A DNA stretch of 64,000 nucleotides from Chloroflexota bacterium. Lineage in GTDB: Bacteria > Chloroflexota > Chloroflexia > Chloroflexales > Roseiflexaceae. Below, piece by piece: positions 10,768 through 52,195 of this stretch (positions within the stretch are counted from its first letter, which is position 1; each line of letters begins with the position of its first letter). The notes under the pieces are model-generated. The model made no database searches. It saw only the letters and a list, made by a program, of their open reading frames with translations, and had not been told where the DNA came from. The position numbers were made by a program, and so were the translations under genes. Where the stretch lies: contig JACAEQ010000036.1 of the NCBI GenBank assembly GCA_013388755.1, positions 1-64,000 of the forward strand. Reading direction: 5' to 3'.

Positions 10768-10815
10768 TGGTCTGTCAACAACGTTTTCTCACAATGCCGT
10801 CACGCTGGGAGTGCG

Positions 10816-10853
10816 GGCGTCTCGCCCTCAATAACGGGCGCGGGCGAGACGCC
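10816..10853 (+). terminator. Hairpin after radA (12-bp stem GGCGTCTCGCCC/GGGCGAGACGCC, 14-nt loop)
   Basis: Perfect inverted repeat ~50 nt after the radA stop; loop TCAATAACGGGCGC contains the AATAACGG motif of repeat family B. Confidence 0.45.
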
Positions 10854-10900
10854 TGCGCCCGGCGATTGGCAAGAACACGTCGTTGCCAGTGTACGTAGTG

Positions 10901-11050
10901 CCTCTCCGAATAACGGATTGGATGTCATTGCGCGCGAAGCGACGCAATCGAGCGGCGCGAGCGGAGATTGCGTCAGCTACGCGTCGCTCGCTGCAGGCTG
11001 TCGCTCGCGCTCCGCGCAATGACAGGCGGCGTAGCGTTGTTCGGATAGGC
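10901..11050. repeat. Family-B intergenic imperfect-palindrome repeat (copy B1)
   Basis: CCGAATAACGG...GTCATTGCGCGCGAAGCGACGCAA...GCGCTCCGCGCAATGAC...CGTTGTTCGGATAGG; arms are mutually reverse-complementary; homologous copies at 13716, 19686, 47941, 51897. Confidence 0.75.
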
Positions 11051-11120
11051 TAACGATCAGGCCAGCCTGCCGGATGTGGCATGCCTGGCCTCCTGTGATC
11101 GATGGCATTCAGTGGCACTC

Positions 11121-12297: not shown

Positions 12298-13701
12298 ATG
12301 ACCATTCCATCGGATACGTTCATAACCGATCCAGCCGGTGTGTTGCCAGTTCCTGGCCCGCGCGCCGAGGCGCTGGTCGCCCGCGATCATAAGGTCTATG
12401 CTCCGTGCATGGGACGCGTTTACCCCTTCGTGATGGAACGCGGCCAGGGGTGCGAGGTGTGGGACGTTGATGGTCACCGGTATCTCGACCTCAATGCCGG
12501 GATTGCCGTTGTCTCAACCGGGCACTCCCACCCGCGGATCGTGCGCGCCATACAGGATCAGGCAACGCGGTTCGTTCACATGGCTGCCACCGATTTCTAC
12601 AATGAGCCGATGATCCGGCTCGGGGAACGACTCACGGCCACCATGCCGCGCCAGTACGCCTGGCAGGCGTTCCTGACCAACTCCGGTACCGAGTCGATCG
12701 AAGCGGCAATTAAACTGGCACGCTACGTGACCGGCCGCCAGGGAATCATCGCCTTCTTTGGCGCGTTCCACGGCCGTTCATACGGCGCCCTCTCGCTCAC
12801 CGCGTCAAAGCCGGCGCAGCGCCGCGGCTATTACCCGCTGGTCCCCGGCTCGTTTCACGCCTTCTATGCCAACCCATACCGCCCGCCTTTTGGCGTCGAT
12901 CCTGCGCGGGTGACCGAGGTCTGCCTCTCGTACATCGAGGACACATTGCTGCACACGGTTGCACCGCCACGCGATGTTGCGGCCATTGTTGTGGAACCCA
13001 TCCAGGGTGAGGGTGGCTATGTGGTTCCCTCGCCCGGTTTTCTGTGCGGGTTGCGCCAGTTGTGCGACCAGTACGGCATCCTGTTGATCCTCGATGAGGT
13101 TCAGAGTGGTGTTGGCCGCACCGGTACGATGTGGGCCTTTGAGCAGGAATGCCCTGCGGATGAATCCGGTGCATGCGCCACCTGCAACCGCGCACAACCG
13201 ATCGGATGCGTGCCCGATATTCTGGCCACGGCCAAGGGGCTCGGTGCCGGCATGCCAATCGGGGCGATTGTAGCGCGCAAGGATCTCACTGAGTTGTGGG
13301 AGCCCGGCTCGCACGGCAATACGTTTGGCGGCAATGCCCTGGCATGCGCCGCAGCCAATGAGGTGCTCGACCTGGTGCAAACAGAGCTGGCGGCCAATGC
13401 TGCCCGGGTTGGCACCCATCTGCTCCGTGGGTTGCGCGAGTTGCAGCAACGCTATGACGTCATCGGCGATGTGCGTGGGCGTGGACTGATGATCGGTGTG
13501 GAATTCGTCAAGGATCGTGCGACACGCGAGCCGGCGCGCGCGCTGGCCCACCAGGTGATGGAAGAAGCGTTCCATCGTGGCCTGCTGATCCTGACCTGCG
13601 GCACATCTACGATTCGCTTCTGTCCGCCGCTGGTGCTGACCGAAGCGCAGGCGGACGAGGGCCTTGCCAGGTTTGAGGCGGCGCTGCGCGCGAGCCTGTG
13701 A
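12298..13701 (+). CDS. Class-III pyridoxal-phosphate aminotransferase (GABA/acetylornithine aminotransferase family)
   Basis: VVSTGHSHPRIVRAIQDQ, LILDEVQSGVGRTG, ATAKGLGAGMPIGA (PLP-Lys); AGGAGG RBS; contains an atypical 18-aa Cys-rich insertion. Confidence 0.88.
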   Translation: MTIPSDTFITDPAGVLPVPGPRAEALVARDHKVYAPCMGRVYPFVMERGQGCEVWDVDGHRYLDLNAGIAVVSTGHSHPRIVRAIQDQATRFVHMAATDFYNEPMIRLGERLTATMPRQYAWQAFLTNSGTESIEAAIKLARYVTGRQGIIAFFGAFHGRSYGALSLTASKPAQRRGYYPLVPGSFHAFYANPYRPPFGVDPARVTEVCLSYIEDTLLHTVAPPRDVAAIVVEPIQGEGGYVVPSPGFLCGLRQLCDQYGILLILDEVQSGVGRTGTMWAFEQECPADESGACATCNRAQPIGCVPDILATAKGLGAGMPIGAIVARKDLTELWEPGSHGNTFGGNALACAAANEVLDLVQTELAANAARVGTHLLRGLRELQQRYDVIGDVRGRGLMIGVEFVKDRATREPARALAHQVMEEAFHRGLLILTCGTSTIRFCPPLVLTEAQADEGLARFEAALRASL

Positions 13702-13715
13702 GGAGCGCGCTTCAC

Positions 13716-13770
13716 GCTGTCGCTTGCGCTCCGCGCCATGACAACAGGCGTAGAGTCTTTCGGATAGGGC
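13716..13770. repeat. Family-B repeat, half copy (right arm, B2)
   Basis: GCTGTCGCTTGCGCTCCGCGCCATGACAACAGGCGTAGAGTCTTTCGGATAGGG matches the right arm of B1. Confidence 0.6.
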
Positions 13771-14292
13771 CTAACTGACGGTATACGCCGGCGGCGGTGT
13801 CTGTGGCCGCTGGCGTACCGCCAGCCAGCCGCCGAGCGCGCCGAGCGCCAGAGAGAACAGCAGATGGAACACGCCAGCGCAGAACCCGATAACCGGCCCC
13901 ATCACCGTCACCAGGCCGCGAATATCGTCATCGGTCAACCCTGAGGCCGGTTGTTGCTCCTCAATCTGTCGCAGTACCTGCTCGAAGAGCGCCGGATCGC
14001 TCTGAACAATCATGAACGCAACGATCCAGAAAATAACCGACCCGACAAGAGCGCCGACACCGGCGACCGCTCCGGCAAGCGTACCGCTGCCGATCCCGGC
14101 AGCCTCGCCACCCCAGCGCACACCAACATAGCCTGCGATTGCACCCACTGCTATGCTTGCCACTGGCCCGCAGCAAAAGACCCCGACCGCCGGGACGAAC
14201 GACAGGCCGGCAACGGCGACAAGACTGACCAGCGCGAATATGAGGCCGGATTTGAGACCGCCGGACATGCTCCCCCTCCTCACGCAGAGCAC
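13771..14292 (-). CDS. Gly/Ala-rich integral membrane protein, function unknown
   Basis: 173 aa, 4-5 hydrophobic helices rich in G/A/V; no recognisable catalytic motif. Confidence 0.5.
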   Translation of the reverse strand: MLCVRRGSMSGGLKSGLIFALVSLVAVAGLSFVPAVGVFCCGPVASIAVGAIAGYVGVRWGGEAAGIGSGTLAGAVAGVGALVGSVIFWIVAFMIVQSDPALFEQVLRQIEEQQPASGLTDDDIRGLVTVMGPVIGFCAGVFHLLFSLALGALGGWLAVRQRPQTPPPAYTVS

Positions 14293-19424: not shown

Positions 19425-19658
19425 TTGTTGCACTTTGCTATCACGACGATGCGCTGGATCTTTCTAAAACTGATTCGCTTTTACCAGCTCTTCATCTCGC
19501 CGGCACTCCCACCCAGTTGTATCTACGAGCCAAGCTGCTCGAAATACACCTACCAGGCGATCGAGAAATATGGCGCGCTGAAGGGAACATACCTCGGCAT
19601 CCGCCGTATCCTGCGCTGCCATCCGTGGGCCAGGGGCGGTCATGATCCCGTACCCTGA
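19425..19658 (+). CDS. yidD: Membrane protein insertion efficiency factor YidD
   Basis: 77 aa with [59 protein letters not shown], classic YidD/DUF37 signature. Confidence 0.85.
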
Positions 19659-19685
19659 GAGCCTGTTCGCACACGATACGCCTCG

Positions 19686-19807
19686 TGTCGTTGCGCGGAG
19701 CGTCAGTGACCGCCTGCAGCGGGCGACGCGTGGCTGAAGCACTCTCCGCTCGCGCCGCTCGATTGCGTCGCTGCGCGCAATACTATCCCATCCGTTATTC
19801 GGATAGG
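19686..19807. repeat. Family-B repeat (copy B3, inverted orientation)
   Basis: TCGATTGCGTCGCTGCGCGCAATAC...CCGTTATTCGGATAGG is the reverse complement of the B1 left arm. Confidence 0.7.
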
Positions 19808-19841
19808 CACCATGCGCGTTCCGGGTCCGTTGCGCCTGCGT

Positions 19842-20600
19842 TCAGCAGCAGAGTTCGAATGCCTGCCTCAATGCTGCCACCGTATCGCCGCGTGGAACGA
19901 ACTCCTGCCCGACGTAGCCGTCATAACCGGTTGACGCAATCGCCCGCATCACCGCCACGTAGTTAATCTCCTGGGTTTCATCAATCTCATGCCGGCCGGG
20001 GTTGCCTGCCGTATGGTAGTGGCAAAACCAGCGATGCTGCGACTCGATCGTGCGAATGAGATCGCCTTCCATGATCTGCGCATGGTAGATGTCGTAGAGC
20101 AAGCGCACGCGCGGTGAATCCACCTGACGGACAACCTCGACACCCCAGGAGGTATGGTCGAACTGGTAGCCGGGATGGTCCACCTTGCTATTGAGCAATT
20201 CCAGCGCCAGGTACACACCCGCATCCTCGGCGGCGCGCGCCACACGTCGTAAGCCCTCAACAGTCGCTTCTATCCCTTCTGCATCGGTACAGCCATCACG
20301 ACTGCCGCTGAAACAGATCAGGTTCGGGATGCGCCATGTTTCCGCCAGGCGCAGGCTCGCCAGGATTTCACGCTCGATGCGATCATGCTGGTCACGTCGG
20401 TTCAAGCCCAGCTCGATCGATGCATGCCCGTTGGCTGAAGCAATGGCCAGGCCATGCGCATGGATGAGCGGCCAGTGTTCCTGCGGAGCAAGTTCCACGG
20501 CGGCATAGCCAATCTCGGCGACGGCGCGAACGAATCGCTCAGGTGTCATATCGTCGCGCACATAGCACCACCATGAAGCCGATTGTTTGAAAGTCGCCAT
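19842..20600 (-). CDS. Xylose-isomerase-like TIM-barrel protein (hydroxypyruvate isomerase / sugar-phosphate isomerase-epimerase-like)
   Basis: 252 aa; ...AVELAPQE..., conserved His/Glu metal ligands of the AP-endonuclease-2/Hyi fold. Confidence 0.6.
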
Positions 20601-35206: not shown

Positions 35207-35506
35207 ATGGAACAGCGTCAACTTCGTCGCAATCGCAGCGATCGCATTCTCGGCGGGGTCGCTTCAGGTCTGGCGCGTATGCTGAACGTCGATCCGGTTT
35301 TCGTACGGCTGGGCTTTCTGTTTCTTGCCTTGATCAACGGTTTCGGCGCGCTCATCTACATCGCGATGTGGCTCCTGGTTCCCGCCGACGACAGCCACGA
35401 AACCGACCCCCGGGCGCAGATGCGCGAGAACGTCGCCGATATGCAGCAGGTCGCCGAGGAATATGTCGCGCGGGTGCGCAGCATGTTTACCGCGCCGAAC
35501 AACTAG
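35207..35506 (+). CDS. PspC-domain protein (phage-shock protein C family)
   Basis: RSDRILGGVASGLARMLNVDPVFVRLGFLFLALINGFGALIYIAMWLLVP. Confidence 0.75.
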   Translation: MEQRQLRRNRSDRILGGVASGLARMLNVDPVFVRLGFLFLALINGFGALIYIAMWLLVPADDSHETDPRAQMRENVADMQQVAEEYVARVRSMFTAPNN

Positions 35507-35657
35507 AACCAATACCTTTCACATCAGGCGTTCTGCACCGCACAGCCCCCCACCCAGCCTCTCCCCGCCGGGGGGAGGAGTCGGACTCCCTCCCCCGGCG
35601 GGGGAGGGCCGGGGTGGGGGTGACGGGCGTATGTGAAAGGTAGTGCAACTAGAACAA
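35503..35657. mobile_element. Family-A MITE-like nested-hairpin repeat (copy A2), CTAGAAC at both ends
   Basis: Flanked by caaCTAGAAC direct repeats; terminal inverted repeats ...CCTTTCACAT / ATGTGAAAGG...; two internal G/C palindromes CCTCTCCCCGCCGGGGGGAGG and CCCTCCCCCGGCGGGGGAGGG; left end overlaps the pspC TAG stop. Confidence 0.7.
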
Positions 35658-36966: not shown

Positions 36967-39900
36967 TTATGGGCGGCAACTGGCATTGTATGGTGCGCTC
37001 TCGAAATAGGTGCGCCATTCACTCTCAGAGAGTGTACGCCCGGCCATACGGCAGGCAACCGTGAGCAGTTCCCCACTGCCGGCCGGCAGCGAATCCGGGG
37101 CAGGCAACGGATCGTCGAGATTCCAGACGCGCGCGATGCCATCAGCGCCGACGCTCATGACCGTTCGTGTTGCAGGTGGGACCACCACACCCGTGACCGG
37201 CCCATCATGGCCGCGTAACAGAAACGGTCTGGCGCCCGGATCGGCGGTTGTCAGATCCCACAGGCCAACACTGCCATCAGCGCTCGCAGTGACAAGGCGA
37301 TCGCCACCACCACTCAGGGCCAGGCCAGTGATGCGATCGGCATGGCCGCGCAGTACCACACGCGCCTGATTGTCATCGCGACCCTCAAGATCCCAGACAC
37401 ACGTCGTGCCGTCGGCGCTGCCGGCGATCACCAGAGGCGCGGTATTCGAGGTCATCAGCAACTGCGTCACCGGCGCGGTAAGACCGAGGAGCACATACGG
37501 CTGATTGAAACTGACGCCGCTGAGGCTCCAGAGCCGCACCTGGCCACCTGCGCTGCCATAGGCGATCCAGCGTCCATTGCCACTGAACGCAATCGACGTC
37601 AGCGGGCCACGCGTCCGTTCCTGGGTGTAGGAGCCTGTACCGGACGACAGGGTATACAGACGCGCCTGGCTGTCGTCATTTCCGGTCGCCAGCAACTGGC
37701 CGTCGGGGCTGAAGGCCAGTGAACGAACGGCACTTTGCCCGCCAAGTCCGCTCAGGCGCTGTGGTGCCGCTGACGGACTGGCAAGATCATAGACCAGCGT
37801 CGCCCCCTGCGCGTCGGCGATCGCCAGCAAACGCCCGTCGGCGCTAAGCGCAATCGCGGTATTGGCGTCACCCGGGCCACTGAGTTCGCGCGCGACAGAC
37901 ACAGCGCTGGAAACGTTCCACAGCCGGACGCTCGCCGCATCACCGCCCGCGGTCACGAGCCGGGTTCCATCGCTGGAGAGCGCGAGCAGCGTCACCGGGC
38001 CAGGCGCCATGGCCGTGCGCGGCGGGGCCGCCAGGTCGGCCAGGTTCCACACCTGAAGCGCACCATCCGCGCCGACGATCGCCGTCACCGTGCCATCACG
38101 GCTGGTTGCGACGGCAGAAGCCGGCCTGGCGATATCCAGCCCGATCCCACCGATGCGTGTCAGCGCATTCCGCAACACTGCATCCGCGACATCAACCGGC
38201 GGCTCACCCTTCGCAAGCGTGACCTGCACCGCCTCAACCGCCAGGAGCAGGCCGCGCACCGGGCGCTCACTACTCTCCGCCTGCGCCAGCGCAGCAAGCT
38301 GGCCGGCACGCGCCTGGCGCGCCTGTTGTTCGAGCGCCGGCACCAGCGCCTCGGCGGTACGGCGCGCCTGTGCCTCCTGCACCGCCGCGAGCGCAACCTC
38401 CGTACCGCGCTGCAGGGCCAGCCCTTCAGCGGCCTGCGCAGTAGCGGCGGCGGCGCGCGCATCGGCAGCGGCAACCTGTGCCGTGGCGGCGGCCTGGTCC
38501 GAGATGACAACCTGCGTTGCAAGGTCGAACGTCCTGGCCTGGATCTGCGACTGTTGCCCGAGGAGGACGACGCCGGAAACGATCGCTCCGGCAAGCGCAA
38601 ATACCAGAGAGGCAACTACAAGGCGCAGGCGGCGGGCAGAACGCGCCTCAGCCTCGGCACGCCGCCCCTGCTCGACGGCCAGCTTCTCACTCTGTTCGGC
38701 CTGGAGGCGTCGCGCTTCGGCCAGCGCCTGGGCCTGCTCCAGCTCATGGCGGGTCCGTTCCTCCTTCTCGTGCCGTGCCTGATCAATCGCCTGACGGCTC
38801 GCCACGACCAGGTCAATCAACGCCTCATCGAAGCCGAGATAGGCGGCCTCAGCACTGTTCAGCCAGCGTTCCGCCTCGATCAATTGCACTTCGTCGAGCA
38901 GTCCTGCCGCTCCGCCCCCCAGGCGCACCCATTCTGCCGCTTTGGCTTCCAGGCGGCGGCGCGACGCAATCGCGGCCCGCTCATCTTCCAGCCAGCCAAC
39001 CAGGGTCGGCCAGTTACGCACGAGCGCCTCGTGCGCAACTTCCACCTGCGCGGCTTCCGGCGTATCGCCCGGCGTCAGGCGCACCAGCCGCGACGCAATC
39101 AGGCGATCGAGCACACGATCGACGCGATCACGCGCTTCACCGGCCCGATAGAGCTGATCACGGCGGATGCGATTGCTGGTAATCTCCAGGCCTTCACCGG
39201 GGCGAACCATACGCATCAGAATACGGCGCGCCGTTACCTGCTCCTCCGGGATCAGGCCATTGTAGAAAGCGTCGGCGCTACGCGCCAGTGCCTGGCGCCC
39301 GCCGCCAATCTGCTGATACGCCTGCCATGTCACCCGATTGCGATCGCGCGCGTCCCACAACTTGAGCAGGGTGAACTGCAACAACGGCAACGCTGCCGGT
39401 TCACCAAGCATGTCGTGCAGCAGCGCCTCAACGACCCCTTGCTCGAACTTCAGCCCGACCAGCTCTGCCGGCCGTTCGATCGCCTCGCGCATTTCGCTGG
39501 CATTGAGCGGCAGCAACTGGACGCGCGCCTGTTCAACCCAGCTTTGCAGGGCAGGTTCGAGCGCAATAAAACTCTCGAAGTCACTGCGCAGCGTCATAAT
39601 GACCAGGTGATCGGGTGAACGATGCTCCGCCAGCGTCACCAGCGCCGCAACAAACGCCCGGCGCTCCACCTCATCGTCGGTGAGGGTAAAGAGCTCCTCG
39701 AGCTGATCGACAAACAGCACCGCCGGCGTCTCCCCGGCCAGCGCCGCGATCACCTGTTGCGGATCGCGTAGTTGATCGGCCAGTTTCTCATCCTGCGCCA
39801 GGTCATCGGGATGCCCCATCATGCGGCGCAACGCACGCGCGAGGTGAACCAGCGGCTGATCGCCGGGGACCATCGGCGGCACATAGCGCCACGCGCGGCT

Positions 39901-40425
39901 ACCCGGGATGGCGTCGTTCTTCAACGCCGGAATGAGGCCGGCGCGCACCACCGACGACTTCCCGGCGCCTGATGGGCCGACCAGCACCAGCATATGGCGC
40001 TCGTTCAGCTTGCCGACAAGATACTCAACCAGGCGCCGGCGGCCAAAGAAGCGCTCGGCATCTTCTTCGCGAAAGGCATCAAGGCCGACATAGGGGCAGC
40101 TTGCATCATCAAGGATCGGCGCGATTTCCGGATCGAACTCTTGGAGTGTTGCGTCCGGCGGATCGTAGCCGTTGCGCATGAGGATCGTGGCCCAGTAGTC
40201 AAGCAAACTCTGCGCCGCCGAGCGCTCGTCCTCATCATCAAGCAGAACGCCTGTGGCGCTGCCGCGGGCAATGATCCTGGCCGCCTGGCTCAACAGTGCC
40301 GGCGTCAGCCCCCCATCGCGCTGGCGCCGCAGCATCTCGGTATGCGCCAGGCGCAGCGCCGCAAACGACGGATAGAGCGAGCCATCATGTTCAGGCGGCT
40401 GTTCCGGCGATGTGGCACGTGTCAT
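36967..40425 (-). CDS. STAND-class P-loop NTPase - coiled coil - TM helix - WD40 beta-propeller protein (1152 aa)
   Basis: CPYVGLDAFREEDAERFFGRR + Walker A LVGPSGAGKSS + Walker B VLFVDQLEE; EVAHEALVRNWPTLVGWL helical motif; predicted TM helix LRLVVASLVFALAGAIVSGVVLLG (~aa 600-623); >=7 WD40-like blades (VRLWNV, TLVYDL, ARLYTL, VRLWSL, TCVWDL, VGLWDL, ARVWNL); start ATG overlaps the CHAT gene stop (ATGA). Confidence 0.85.
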   Translation of the reverse strand: MTRATSPEQPPEHDGSLYPSFAALRLAHTEMLRRQRDGGLTPALLSQAARIIARGSATGVLLDDEDERSAAQSLLDYWATILMRNGYDPPDATLQEFDPEIAPILDDASCPYVGLDAFREEDAERFFGRRRLVEYLVGKLNERHMLVLVGPSGAGKSSVVRAGLIPALKNDAIPGSRAWRYVPPMVPGDQPLVHLARALRRMMGHPDDLAQDEKLADQLRDPQQVIAALAGETPAVLFVDQLEELFTLTDDEVERRAFVAALVTLAEHRSPDHLVIMTLRSDFESFIALEPALQSWVEQARVQLLPLNASEMREAIERPAELVGLKFEQGVVEALLHDMLGEPAALPLLQFTLLKLWDARDRNRVTWQAYQQIGGGRQALARSADAFYNGLIPEEQVTARRILMRMVRPGEGLEITSNRIRRDQLYRAGEARDRVDRVLDRLIASRLVRLTPGDTPEAAQVEVAHEALVRNWPTLVGWLEDERAAIASRRRLEAKAAEWVRLGGGAAGLLDEVQLIEAERWLNSAEAAYLGFDEALIDLVVASRQAIDQARHEKEERTRHELEQAQALAEARRLQAEQSEKLAVEQGRRAEAEARSARRLRLVVASLVFALAGAIVSGVVLLGQQSQIQARTFDLATQVVISDQAAATAQVAAADARAAAATAQAAEGLALQRGTEVALAAVQEAQARRTAEALVPALEQQARQARAGQLAALAQAESSERPVRGLLLAVEAVQVTLAKGEPPVDVADAVLRNALTRIGGIGLDIARPASAVATSRDGTVTAIVGADGALQVWNLADLAAPPRTAMAPGPVTLLALSSDGTRLVTAGGDAASVRLWNVSSAVSVARELSGPGDANTAIALSADGRLLAIADAQGATLVYDLASPSAAPQRLSGLGGQSAVRSLAFSPDGQLLATGNDDSQARLYTLSSGTGSYTQERTRGPLTSIAFSGNGRWIAYGSAGGQVRLWSLSGVSFNQPYVLLGLTAPVTQLLMTSNTAPLVIAGSADGTTCVWDLEGRDDNQARVVLRGHADRITGLALSGGGDRLVTASADGSVGLWDLTTADPGARPFLLRGHDGPVTGVVVPPATRTVMSVGADGIARVWNLDDPLPAPDSLPAGSGELLTVACRMAGRTLSESEWRTYFESAPYNASCRP

Positions 40426-47321: not shown

Positions 47322-47933
47322 ATGTCGCAACCCGTCATTCTGGCAACCGACCTCGAAGGCGTCCTCGTTCCGGAAATCTGGATCGCCGTGGCGGAACGCT
47401 CCGGCATCGAACAGTTGCGTCTGACAACACGCGACGTTCCTGATTATGATGAATTGATGCGCGGGCGTATGGCACTTCTGCGCGCACACGGCCTGACACT
47501 GGCAGATATCCAGCGCGTCATCGGGACGATTGACCCGTTGCCGGGAGCAGCTGAGGCGCTGGCGCGCCTGCGCGAAGTGACGCAGGTGATCATTCTATCG
47601 GATACATTTTACGAGTTTGCCATGCCACTCATGGCAAAGCTCGGCTGGCCGACGCTCTTCTGCCATACACTTGAGGTCGACGGCGACGGTATGATCGCCG
47701 GTTATCGCCTGCGCCTGCCGGACAGTAAAACCGCCGCCGTGCACGCACTGCGCGACATCCGGTTCCGCGTCCTGGCCGTCGGCGACTCCTACAACGATAC
47801 CGGCATGCTGGCAGCAGCCGACGCAGGCGCGCTGTTCGAGCCGCCGCCGAATGTGATCGCCGATTTCCCGCAGTTCCCCGTGCTGCGCAGTTACGACGAT
47901 CTGCTGGCATTTGTTGAACGCGAACGGCAATAA
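47322..47933 (+). CDS. HAD-superfamily phosphatase, ThrH-like (phosphoserine phosphatase / homoserine phosphotransferase family)
   Basis: [39 protein letters not shown]...[27 protein letters not shown]...[12 protein letters not shown] closely follows the ThrH pattern recalled from Pseudomonas. Confidence 0.75.
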
Positions 47934-47940
47934 GAGCCTG

Positions 47941-48072
47941 TCCAAATAACGGGTTGGATGGCATTGCGCGCGAAGCGACGCAAGCGGAGATTGCTTCAGC
48001 CACGCATCGCTCGCTGCAGGTTGTCGCTCGCGCTCTGCGCAATGACATAAGGCGTCGCGTTGTTCGGATAGG
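47941..48072. repeat. Family-B repeat (copy B4)
   Basis: CCAAATAACGGGTTGGATGGCATTGCGCGCGAAGCGACGCAAGCGGAGATTGC...GCGCTCTGCGCAATGACATAAGGCGTCGCGTTGTTCGGATAGG. Confidence 0.75.
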
Positions 48073-48087
48073 CACGAAACAGCTTCC

Positions 48088-49023
48088 ATGGCTATCGAAA
48101 CATACGTCAGACCCGAAGTTGCACCAGACGCCGAGACGTCGCTACACTGGCCGTTTCGCGTCAGTGTCGTCATTCCAGCCTATAACGAAGGGCCGCGGGT
48201 CGCGGGCGTCATCCGGGAGGTGCGCGTCCGGCTCCCGGATGCCGAGATCATTGTTGTTGACGACGCGTCATCGGATGATACCGCCGCACAGGCGGCGGCA
48301 GCCGGCGCAATCGTCATCAGCCGGCCGCACAATATCGGCAACGGCGCCGGCGTGCGTACCGGTGTACGCGCCGCAACCGGCGACGTCGTCATCGTGATTG
48401 ATGCCGACGGCCAGCATAACCCCGCCGACATTCCACGTCTGCTGGCCCACCTCGACCGGTATGACATGGTGATCGCCACCCGCCCGGATCGCGAAAGCCA
48501 CGAGAATCTGTTGCGCTGGTTCGGCAATACGGTTCTCAATGCGCTTGGCAGCTATTTATCCGGCTTTGCGATGAAGGATCTGACGTCGGGGTTCCGCGCC
48601 ATGCGCCGCGATGCCATCCTCGAATTTGCGCATCTACTGCCGAACCAGTTCGGCTGGCCGATGACCAGCGCAATGGCCTTCGCAAAAGCTGGCTACCATA
48701 TCAAGTTCGAACCGGTAACCATGCAAAAGCGCCAGGGAGGCCGCAGCACCCAGAAGTTGTTCAAAAACGGCGTGCGCAACATCCTCATCATGCTGCGCAT
48801 GGTCTCGATGTTCGCGCCGTTACGCGTCTATTTTCCAGTGGCGCTGGCCATGTTCGCCCTCAGCCTGGCATCGTTCGCCATCAGCTATTTCGTCACCGAT
48901 CCAGGGCGCTTCCGCGTGCCCAACTCGGCGGTTGGCCTGTTCGTCGGTGCGATCGTCGTGTTCATGTTCGGCTTGCTGGCGGAACAGATCGCCGGCCTGC
49001 GTTTTCAGCGGCGCGACCAGTGA
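48088..49023 (+). CDS. GT2 polyprenyl-phosphate glycosyltransferase (DPM1/ArnC/GtrB-like) with C-terminal TM helices
   Basis: VSVVIPAYNEGPRV, VVDDASSDDT (DxD context), two C-terminal TM helices. Confidence 0.82.
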   Translation: MAIETYVRPEVAPDAETSLHWPFRVSVVIPAYNEGPRVAGVIREVRVRLPDAEIIVVDDASSDDTAAQAAAAGAIVISRPHNIGNGAGVRTGVRAATGDVVIVIDADGQHNPADIPRLLAHLDRYDMVIATRPDRESHENLLRWFGNTVLNALGSYLSGFAMKDLTSGFRAMRRDAILEFAHLLPNQFGWPMTSAMAFAKAGYHIKFEPVTMQKRQGGRSTQKLFKNGVRNILIMLRMVSMFAPLRVYFPVALAMFALSLASFAISYFVTDPGRFRVPNSAVGLFVGAIVVFMFGLLAEQIAGLRFQRRDQ

Positions 49024-51838: not shown

Positions 51839-51896
51839 GTTCACACGTCTCCTGGGAGCACAGGTGTCCAGGTGCGTTTACGAAGATTCAGACGCC

Positions 51897-52195
51897 ACCT
51901 GTCAGTGCGCGGAGCGTCAGCGACCGCCTGTCAGTGCGCGGAGCGTTAGCGACCGCTTGCAGCGAGCGAAGCGTGGCTGAAGCAATCTCGGCGGAGACGG
52001 GAGATTGCTTCGCTGCGCGCGCAATGACCTGAAAGATGGGAGCTTGCGTCGCTGCGCGCGCAATGACCTGAAAGATGGGAGCTTGCGTCGCTGCGCGCGC
52101 ACTGACAGCCAGATGCCGCCCGTCAGTGCGTGGAGCGTTAGCGACCGCTTGCAGCGAGCGAAGCGTGGCTGACGCAATCTCCTCGCTGCGCGCGT
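51897..52195. repeat. Family-B repeat array (copy B5) with internal tandem duplications
   Basis: CTGTCAGTGCGCGGAGCGT(C/T)AGCGACCGC x2; 36-39-nt unit GCGCGCGCAATGACCTGAAAGATGGGAGCTTGCGTCGCT x2; ...GCGTGGAGCGTTAGCGACCGCTTGCAGCGAGCGAAGCGTGGCTGA... x2. Confidence 0.7.

Follow-up and report, generated by a model that had tools for sequence, protein, structure and literature searches.

Family B, the intergenic repeat whose first copy lies at positions 10898-11052 of the window (the whole 64,000-nt stretch of DNA analysed here), is very probably an IS5-derived MITE, a non-autonomous DNA transposon. We favor this reading because the copies carry TIRs and TTA/TAA TSDs, because matching ends are found on IS5-family elements, including real IS elements of other bacteria, and because three of the window's insertion sites are empty in relatives. 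The original prediction described imperfect palindromes of about 135 nt in five places and both orientations, and proposed four roles for them, of which the MITE has held up and the REP/BIME stabilizer, the terminator and the structured sRNA have not. The repeat family is real, as the five places, with copies in both orientations, emerge from a repeat search and from nhmmer alike. Its shared blocks also exceed chance, with GTCATTGCGCGCGAAGCGACGCAA (up to 3 mismatches) occurring five times compared to none in 100 shuffles, and the central 23-mer TCAGCYACGCNTCGCYCGCTGCA occurring five times in the window compared to 0.01 expected. While the places had been located correctly, their limits have been corrected from 10901-11050 to 10898-11052, from 13716-13770 to 13705-13771, from 19686-19807 to 19659-19810, from 47941-48072 to 47934-48075, and from 51897-52195 to 51877-52193. 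The unit is also longer than first estimated, since the full copies in the window measure 142-155 nt. The copies and their parts are as follows.

10898-11052, plus strand: C1, full-length type I copy of 155 nt, delimited by sequence reading and an iterated nhmmer profile
10898-10915: left TIR of C1, GTGCCTCTCCGAATAACG
10924-10949: inner short hairpin module of C1
11022: end of the long right arm of C1, ...CGCAATGAC
11035-11052: right TIR of C1
13705-13771, plus strand: C2, 5′-truncated 3′ half copy, model positions 90-153
right TIR of C2: ...TTTCGGATAGGGCC, then TAA at 13772-13774
19659-19810, minus strand: C3, full-length type I copy of 152 nt, inverted
47934-48075, plus strand: C4, full-length type I copy of 142 nt with an internal deletion of 13 nt
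51877-52193, minus strand: rearranged cluster, TIR-less, internal pieces only
51995-52111: tandem units within the cluster, 3 x 39 nt of the short hairpin module

All of the copies in the window are of type I. The full copies match the profile on both strands, with one strand scoring far better in each (157 vs. 61 bits, for example), and the element is thus a polar imperfect palindrome. The cluster at 51.9-52.2 kb is made up of model positions 54-140, the three 39-nt tandem units, model positions 25-132 and model positions 98-151. C1 sits in a 353-nt spacer that runs from a RadA-like gene to a PIN/YCF81 gene, and its flanking trinucleotides, GTA and ACG, represent a decayed TSD. C2 occupies a 69-nt spacer with convergent stops, between the TGA of an aminotransferase gene (13699-13701) and a small minus-strand ORF ending at 13771. 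C3, whose TSD is also decayed, begins directly 3′ of the TGA at 19656-19658, which closes a gene that we take to be yidD-like from its translation as read by eye, and is bordered on the other side by a convergent AP_endonuc_2 gene ending at 19842. C4 begins directly after the TAA (47931-47933) of a HAD-hydrolase gene and stops 12 nt short of the ATG (48088) of a glycosyltransferase family-2 (GT2) gene, flanked by TAA and GAA, a near-intact TSD. An exact TSD is therefore present in none of the three full copies in the window. The intergenic placement noted at the outset applies to all five sites, and the estimated density of about one copy per 12 kb agrees with five sites in 64 kb, or about one per 13 kb. 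The description of copies abutting a stop codon fits C2, C3 and C4, three of the five sites.

We examined the family beyond the window in 41 related metagenome contigs, 37 of them from sample Ga0272446, which together with the window amount to 0.44 Mb. These contigs were picked by the central 23-mer, so that its conservation among them is by construction. Within this sample nhmmer finds 76 non-overlapping family-B matches, 37 of which are full-length and 36 of those distinct; the full copies are 142-161 nt long, non-coding and dispersed. Nearly all of the 36 full copies have TIRs of 17-18 nt, the left one being G[A/T]GCCTATCCGAA(A/T)A(A/C)C and the right one its complement, ...TTCGGATAGGC[A/T]C, and their pairing is visible in the folds. 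The flanking 3 bases are identical in 12 of the 36 (9 TTA and 3 TAA), with many others off by one base, and tandem dimers with a single TTA between the units occur on four contigs (L033, L035, L037 and L040). Two subfamilies can be told apart by concordant differences beside the ends, on the left and on the right, and four copies are chimeras of the two.

Type I: left arm ..CCGAATAACGGATTGG.., right arm ..GGCGTAGCGTTKTTCGG, 21 copies, median pairwise identity 78.5%, TSD intact in 2 of 21
Type II: left arm ..CCGAAAACCAGATGG.., right arm ..GCCCATGGGTTTTCGG, 11 copies, median pairwise identity 90%, TSD intact in 8 of 11

The longer form of the type II end is GAGCCTATCCGAAAACCAGATGG. The window copies are decaying relics of the old type I subfamily, and the younger type II subfamily is found elsewhere in the same population. 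As the closest paralogous pair is only 95% identical, there is no sign of current activity. Exact protein look-ups assign the window to Chloroflexota MAGs (NWG19740.1 and others; GCA_053496155.1), and among named taxa Roseiflexaceae/Roseiflexus come closest. The family-B profile is strong only in sister MAGs. The central 23-mer has no matches in the representative-genome collection, the whole element has no blastn match among plasmids, and a literature search with the block, the end and typical spurious-peptide strings returned only unrelated primers.

The ends connect family B to autonomous elements. Two plasmid IS elements, in Kovacikia and Vibrio, were picked up with a 35-nt end probe, and tblastn with the Kovacikia ORF led to two more, in Fibrella and Methylobacterium. 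Written with their flanking trinucleotides, these are:

Kovacikia minuta plasmid pA (NZ_CP083583.1, locus L043 2507-3392, ~890 bp): TTA, GAGCCTATCCGAAAACC...GGTTTTCGGATAGGCTT, TAA
Fibrella: TAA, GAGCCTATCCGG..., TAA
Vibrio campbellii: TTA, GAGCCTATCCC...GATAGGTTC, TTA
Methylobacterium DM1: TCA, GAACCTATCCCGG..., TCA, with more divergent ends

The left end of the Kovacikia element, GAGCCTATCCGAAAACC, matches the type II MITE end at all 17 nt. This copy of the IS is frame-disrupted. The four elements are 868-918 bp long. In Kovacikia and Vibrio their ORF pieces match the Pfam families DUF4096 and DDE_Tnp_1/DDE_Tnp_1_2, and for Vibrio and Methylobacterium the annotation of the records reads “IS5 family transposase”. 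Ends in “GAG” and a size of ~0.85-1 kb presumably place them in the IS1031/IS427-like group of the ISfinder table. For the IS1031 group of the IS5 family, a three-nucleotide target is among the listed features (PMC2516522). The source of the ends is thus probably an IS5-family element of IS1031/IS427-like type, the subgroup being read from size, ends and TSD only. The stretch that family B has in common with real IS elements is short, at ~17 nt, and the family-B interior resembles no transposase gene. A search for a full IS, by paired ends 0.6-2.5 kb apart and by tblastn with two IS5 transposases, found none in the window, the 41 contigs or 99 genome loci, and neither an IS5-family transposase nor a full-length IS with these ends is present in the window and the 0.38 Mb of related contigs. 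The window and contigs do contain one solo end (L028:3790). The putative autonomous partner in this host may have been lost.

Comparison with syntenic Roseiflexaceae-like relatives, at 76-84% protein identity, shows the sites of C1, C2 and C4 without the element. At the C4 site, the spacer between the HAD and GT2 genes is 7 nt or 4 nt in relatives (L151/L152 and L154/L155), compared to 154 nt in the window, with GT2 identities of 80% for the 7-nt spacer and 76% for the 4-nt spacer. At the C1 site, the RadA and PIN genes overlap in a relative whose aminotransferase is 83% identical (L164), where the window has 353 nt, and at the C2 site two relatives (L163 and L164, aminotransferase 83-84%) have a spacer of 3-4 nt, “TAG TAA TCA”, in place of 69 nt. 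The insertions are filled in the close sister MAG GCA_053502415.1.

Across the sample, with gene context taken from a longest-ORF heuristic, 45 sites are intergenic, the spacer being tandem for 25, convergent for 14 and divergent for 6, against a background of 147/37/39. Convergent spacers are thus enriched (14 vs. ~7.5 expected). In at least 10 cases the distance between a copy and the stop of an ORF of at least 100 aa is 0/-1 nt. This bias towards stop codons and gene 3′ ends would follow if the element targets TTA/TAA in a genome rich in G+C and insertions into genes are selected against.

In the mechanism that we propose, the 17-18 nt TIRs would be the ends recognized by an IS5-family DDE transposase, encoded by an IS1031/IS427-like element of ~0.9 kb that makes a 3-bp T-N-A duplication. 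Supplied in trans, this transposase would excise the ~150-nt element and paste it into TTA/TAA sites, and we infer that the copies in this host were mobilized in this way by their cognate transposase. In a genome of ~65% G+C, TTA and TAA would seldom occur except in stop codons and spacers, and selection would purge insertions into genes, leaving copies to accumulate between genes and often at a stop codon. The palindromic shape would have been inherited, from the two inverted ends and from two internal hairpin modules that are inverted relative to each other.

The ends also define a larger group. When 185,579 species genomes, one per species, were scanned for the two ends at a spacing of 110-140 nt, at least 99 loci from more than 12 phyla matched, compared to ~4 loci by a rough chance expectation that assumes uniform composition. 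Among the matches listed, record titles name Planctomycetota, Chloroflexota, Bacteroidota (including the isolate Hymenobacter antarcticus), Verrucomicrobiota, Actinomycetota, Calditrichota, Desulfobacterota, Armatimonadota, Elusimicrobiota, Latescibacterota, KSB1, Pseudomonadota and others. Among these same listed matches, terminal GA...TC is present in 75-79 of the 98 with enough flank, identical 3-bp flanks in 61 of the 98 (32 TAA and 22 TTA) compared to 1-2 when the flanks are shifted, and the interiors are unrelated between lineages and common within one genome. The ends, shared where the interiors are lineage-specific, thus define a superfamily, and family B is one of its lineage-specific families.

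The inner hairpin is the part of family B that invites a different explanation. The 26-nt module, GTCATTGCG[A/C]GCGAAGCGA[A/C]GCAATC, one of the blocks noted in the original prediction, is not private to the family, and structural alignment gives it the form GTC-AT[NNN]-GA-NN-GNA-N′N′-GA(A)-[N′N′N′]AT-C. For pair counting, modules of 26/27 nt were aligned by structure. The stem covaries, its triplets occurring as TGC/GCA, TCT/AGA and GCT/AGC, and the second stem varies between G-C and A-T. Of 21 modules, a set chosen by requiring the stem, 18 keep the tandem G·A and 20 the GNA loop. When modules were instead chosen by prefix and loop only, 13 of 19 distinct sequences had a fully complementary triplet, compared to ~0.6 by chance. 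Intergenic matches are found on plasmids of Novosphingobium (at least 40 places), Methylobacterium, Methylosinus, Halomonas, Psychrobacter, Nostoc, Brasilonema, Aulosira and Calothrix, as free-standing inverted doublets or inside different TIRs. The inverted doublet lies inside MITEs with different ends in Chloroflexota, Planctomycetota, Bacteroidota, Calditrichota and Latescibacterota, and with another TIR in Nostoc, and is free-standing in Alpha- and Gammaproteobacteria. A GTCAT...ATGAC pair is present in 15 of the 99 cross-phylum MITEs, among the matches listed, compared to 0.1 expected. At least 145 exact instances of the 26-mer are spread over 120 viral/proviral contigs, and among the matches listed 63 have an inverted partner. 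A search of the 120 viral contigs for a gene family recurrently beside the module found only phage-structural and low-complexity clusters and no transposase, and against Rfam the free-standing doublet gave only sub-gathering chance or generic-hairpin matches.

Could the family then be a REP/BIME/REPIN system, in which hairpins are spread as single-stranded DNA by a RAYT (HUH/Y1) transposase and the outer TIRs are incidental? The core does have a REP-like layout, as its modules form an inverted doublet and each combines a conserved GTC(A) at the 5′ end with a stem, a mismatch inside it and a small loop. Doublets without any TIR also occur on plasmids of Halomonas and Novosphingobium as well as in many viral contigs. 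The loop also contains GCGNAGC, an ultra-stable DNA mini-hairpin motif (PMC13037366). REPINs likewise consist of an inverted doublet of short hairpins that form a long hairpin, and are intergenic and persistent, but they are tied to a flanking RAYT gene and are without DDE-type TIRs or TSDs (Bertels and Rainey; PMC3116915, PMC3337134). Family B, on the other hand, is bounded by TIRs and TTA/TAA duplications, which are hallmarks of DDE transposition, and every module in the host (window and 41 contigs) sits within a family-B match. The 5′ end of the module is GTCA(T), not GT[A/G]G, and a search with E. coli RayT (E ≤ 1) found no RAYT-like gene in the window and 41 contigs. REPs that do lie beside RAYT genes, on plasmids of Kovacikia, Chloroflexota ZRK35 and Gloeocapsa, are of the GTAGG type and unrelated to the module. 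We therefore consider a RAYT-driven origin improbable. The module itself was tried as the REP of RAYTs and rejected, as the RAYT-flanking REPs in these three plasmids are unrelated GTAGG-type hairpins. It is possible, and we suggest this tentatively, that the module is more than MITE filler and forms a hairpin element in its own right, under structural constraint and active as single-stranded DNA or as RNA. The plain view of a “junk interior” does not account for its recurrence across phyla.

A second alternative is that the repeat is a selected RNA element, such as a 3′ mRNA-stabilizing hairpin, a terminator or a small RNA, whose function explains its repetition. This is quite improbable, even though some observations lean towards it. 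Copies are enriched at gene 3′ ends and in convergent spacers, C4 must be co-transcribed within the HAD-GT2 operon, and the long hairpin that was originally proposed for each copy is well supported for C1, which folds far better than shuffled sequence (-80.6 kcal/mol as RNA, z = -4.1; z = -3.7 as DNA). The same proposal is weak for C3 and C4 (z of -1.4 to -2.1), which fold barely better than shuffles. C1, C3 and C4 have neither the stem and T-run of a terminator nor a sigma-70-like promoter site, and orientation relative to the flanking genes is unbiased, with 9 copies in the same and 6 in the opposite direction in tandem spacers. The 3′-end bias is accounted for by the choice of TAA/TTA as target. 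The comparison with Rfam that had been suggested gave no matches at the gathering score for the window, the element and 18 other loci, with permissive thresholds adding chance or generic-hairpin matches only. Compensatory changes, the other check that had been put forward, are lacking beyond one subfamily split. RNAalifold on 35 copies gives -11 kcal/mol with a covariation term of ~0 and no compensatory pairs, and a 31-pair structure taken from single-sequence folds has 89.3% of cells paired compared to 87.9% when shuffled. The sole frequent double change (columns 17/147) coincides with the division of type I and type II in the TIR, and is a single inherited event. Because these RNA covariation tests are null, the palindromy is inherited and not visibly maintained by RNA selection.

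It is highly improbable that the copies are inert fragments of a larger IS or mobile element, in the form of solo ends or deletion remnants never amplified as a unit, because, despite the solo end and the fragmentary C2 and 51.9-52.2 kb cluster, the 36 distinct full copies have one ~150-nt architecture from end to end, the TSDs bracket this 150-nt unit itself, and the interior is unlike transposase genes, so that the suggestion that the repeats might prove to be pieces of a known IS finds only the ~17-nt ends in common with IS elements and no transposase-coding remnant.

As an IS5-derived MITE, family B can be placed among several known systems. It resembles other IS5-derived bacterial MITEs in being small, non-coding, multi-copy and intergenic, with IS5-matching TIRs and a 3-bp TTA/TAA duplication, and differs from them in its interior, which is an unrelated hairpin doublet and not an IS deletion derivative. 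With the Kovacikia minuta pA IS and its relatives it shares the 17-nt left end and the flanking TTA/TAA, but the Kovacikia element belongs to another phylum (Cyanobacteriota) and has no similarity beyond the ends. The Correia elements of Neisseria, ERIC/IRU and RUP are likewise TIR-bounded elements of 100-160 nt with a short AT-rich TSD that form a long hairpin and are often co-transcribed, but they differ in using a TA dinucleotide target or in deriving from other IS families. In eukaryotes, the Tourist MITEs and PIF-Harbinger elements are distantly related to IS5, duplicate TWA and follow the same logic of a MITE and an autonomous partner; the likeness extends to the 3-bp TTA/TAA duplication, although the host is of another domain of life. 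A MITE of Porphyromonas gingivalis with an internal minisatellite (PMC4596501) is reported to allow tandem expansion of its interior, comparable to the 3 x 39-nt array in the window, but its sequence and host differ, and the array in family B lies in a TIR-less relic.

What is new here is a lineage-specific family, while its kind is known, an IS5-derived MITE that is ordinary selfish DNA apart from the inner hairpin. For annotation, the warning about spurious ORFs in the original prediction was justified, as ORFs of 100-230 aa do traverse the copies, and the copies also lengthen operon spacers, such as by the 142 nt between the HAD and GT genes; masking family B improves gene calls in Roseiflexaceae-like MAGs. 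More broadly, one conserved end (GAGCCTATCCGAA) with a TTA/TAA target marks MITE families with unrelated interiors in over a dozen phyla, and offers a simple search key for such elements. This breadth suggests a widespread clade of IS5-type transposases that has repeatedly spawned miniature derivatives. If the inner module does prove to be an entity of its own, it would represent an undescribed class of REP-like, non-GTAG hairpin repeats, repeatedly captured by or carried in MITEs, and would join the short list of bacterial hairpin repeats.

Single family-B copies are accompanied by MITE dimers, arranged head-to-tail or as mixed types with a single TTA between the units, and by type I/type II chimeric MITEs (the old and young subfamilies). 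These arrangements suggest insertion beside existing copies or recombination among copies. The repeats discussed here are as follows.

Repeat features in the window and at the compared loci
L033 3073-3405; L035 8962-9275; L037 3612-3930; L040 4838-5062: MITE dimers or chimeras
Window 10924-10949; L046 20006-20083; L049 1504-1590; L047 1485-1597; L166-L285: examples of the inner GTCAT hairpin module
Window 35503-35652; 51652-~51835; ~80-101: family A
L006, L008, L010, L022, L025, L028, L029, L036, L037, L040, L041: 17 further family-A ends

The 26-nt GTCAT module turns up repeatedly in different phyla, and at least 120 (pro)viral contigs carry it; no gene associated with it was found in those contigs. 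It occurs singly, as inverted doublets, or within MITEs with different ends, and its GA/GNA core is constant while the stem covaries.

Family A, a second repeat family beside family B, has 21 ends in total in the window and related contigs. These ends have the sequence CTAG|AACCAATACCTTTCA(C/A)AT(A/C)AGG, with a G-rich palindrome (CCCCCACCC...GGGGGAGG) between them, and members of the family often immediately adjoin family-B copies (e.g., L008, L025, L036). Family A looks like another MITE, with CTAG possibly its target.

A G+C-rich hairpin (GGGCGTCTCGCCC...GGGCGAGACGCC) at window 10811-10858, between the RadA stop and the full copy C1, is separate from C1 and outside the family-B profile, and the spacer holding it is absent in relatives. 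Three 31-nt matches at 37118-37418, within the minus-strand ORF 36967-40425, have an exact 135-nt spacing (45 codons), which suggests that the ORF encodes a repeat-domain protein; this repeat is unrelated to the family-B finding. RAYT homologues sharing 41-44% identity with E. coli RayT, each between classical GTAGG-type REP hairpins, occur in Kovacikia pA (L160), the Chloroflexota ZRK35 plasmid (L161) and a Gloeocapsa plasmid (L162), with several such REP pairs 3′ of the ZRK35 RAYT gene.

At C4, the full copy between the HAD-hydrolase and glycosyltransferase (GT2) genes, ACGAAACAGCTTCC lies directly 5′ of the glycosyltransferase start codon (window 48076-48090), and a Shine-Dalgarno sequence is not obvious. 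The glycosyltransferase start in relatives falls 4-7 nt past the upstream stop, suggesting translational coupling to the upstream gene that the C4 insertion would have broken. The HAD-GT2 spacer of an 84%-identical relative (L153 885-1035) has no MITE but a different insert, in which (CAACCTGCAACCTTCAAA)-like units are arrayed in tandem.

Some superfamily MITEs from the species-genome collection (L069, L098, L123) are nearly perfect palindromes over their whole length, which fits an origin in which one IS end and adjacent sequence were duplicated by fold-back. Such an origin could explain why the interiors differ from lineage to lineage.
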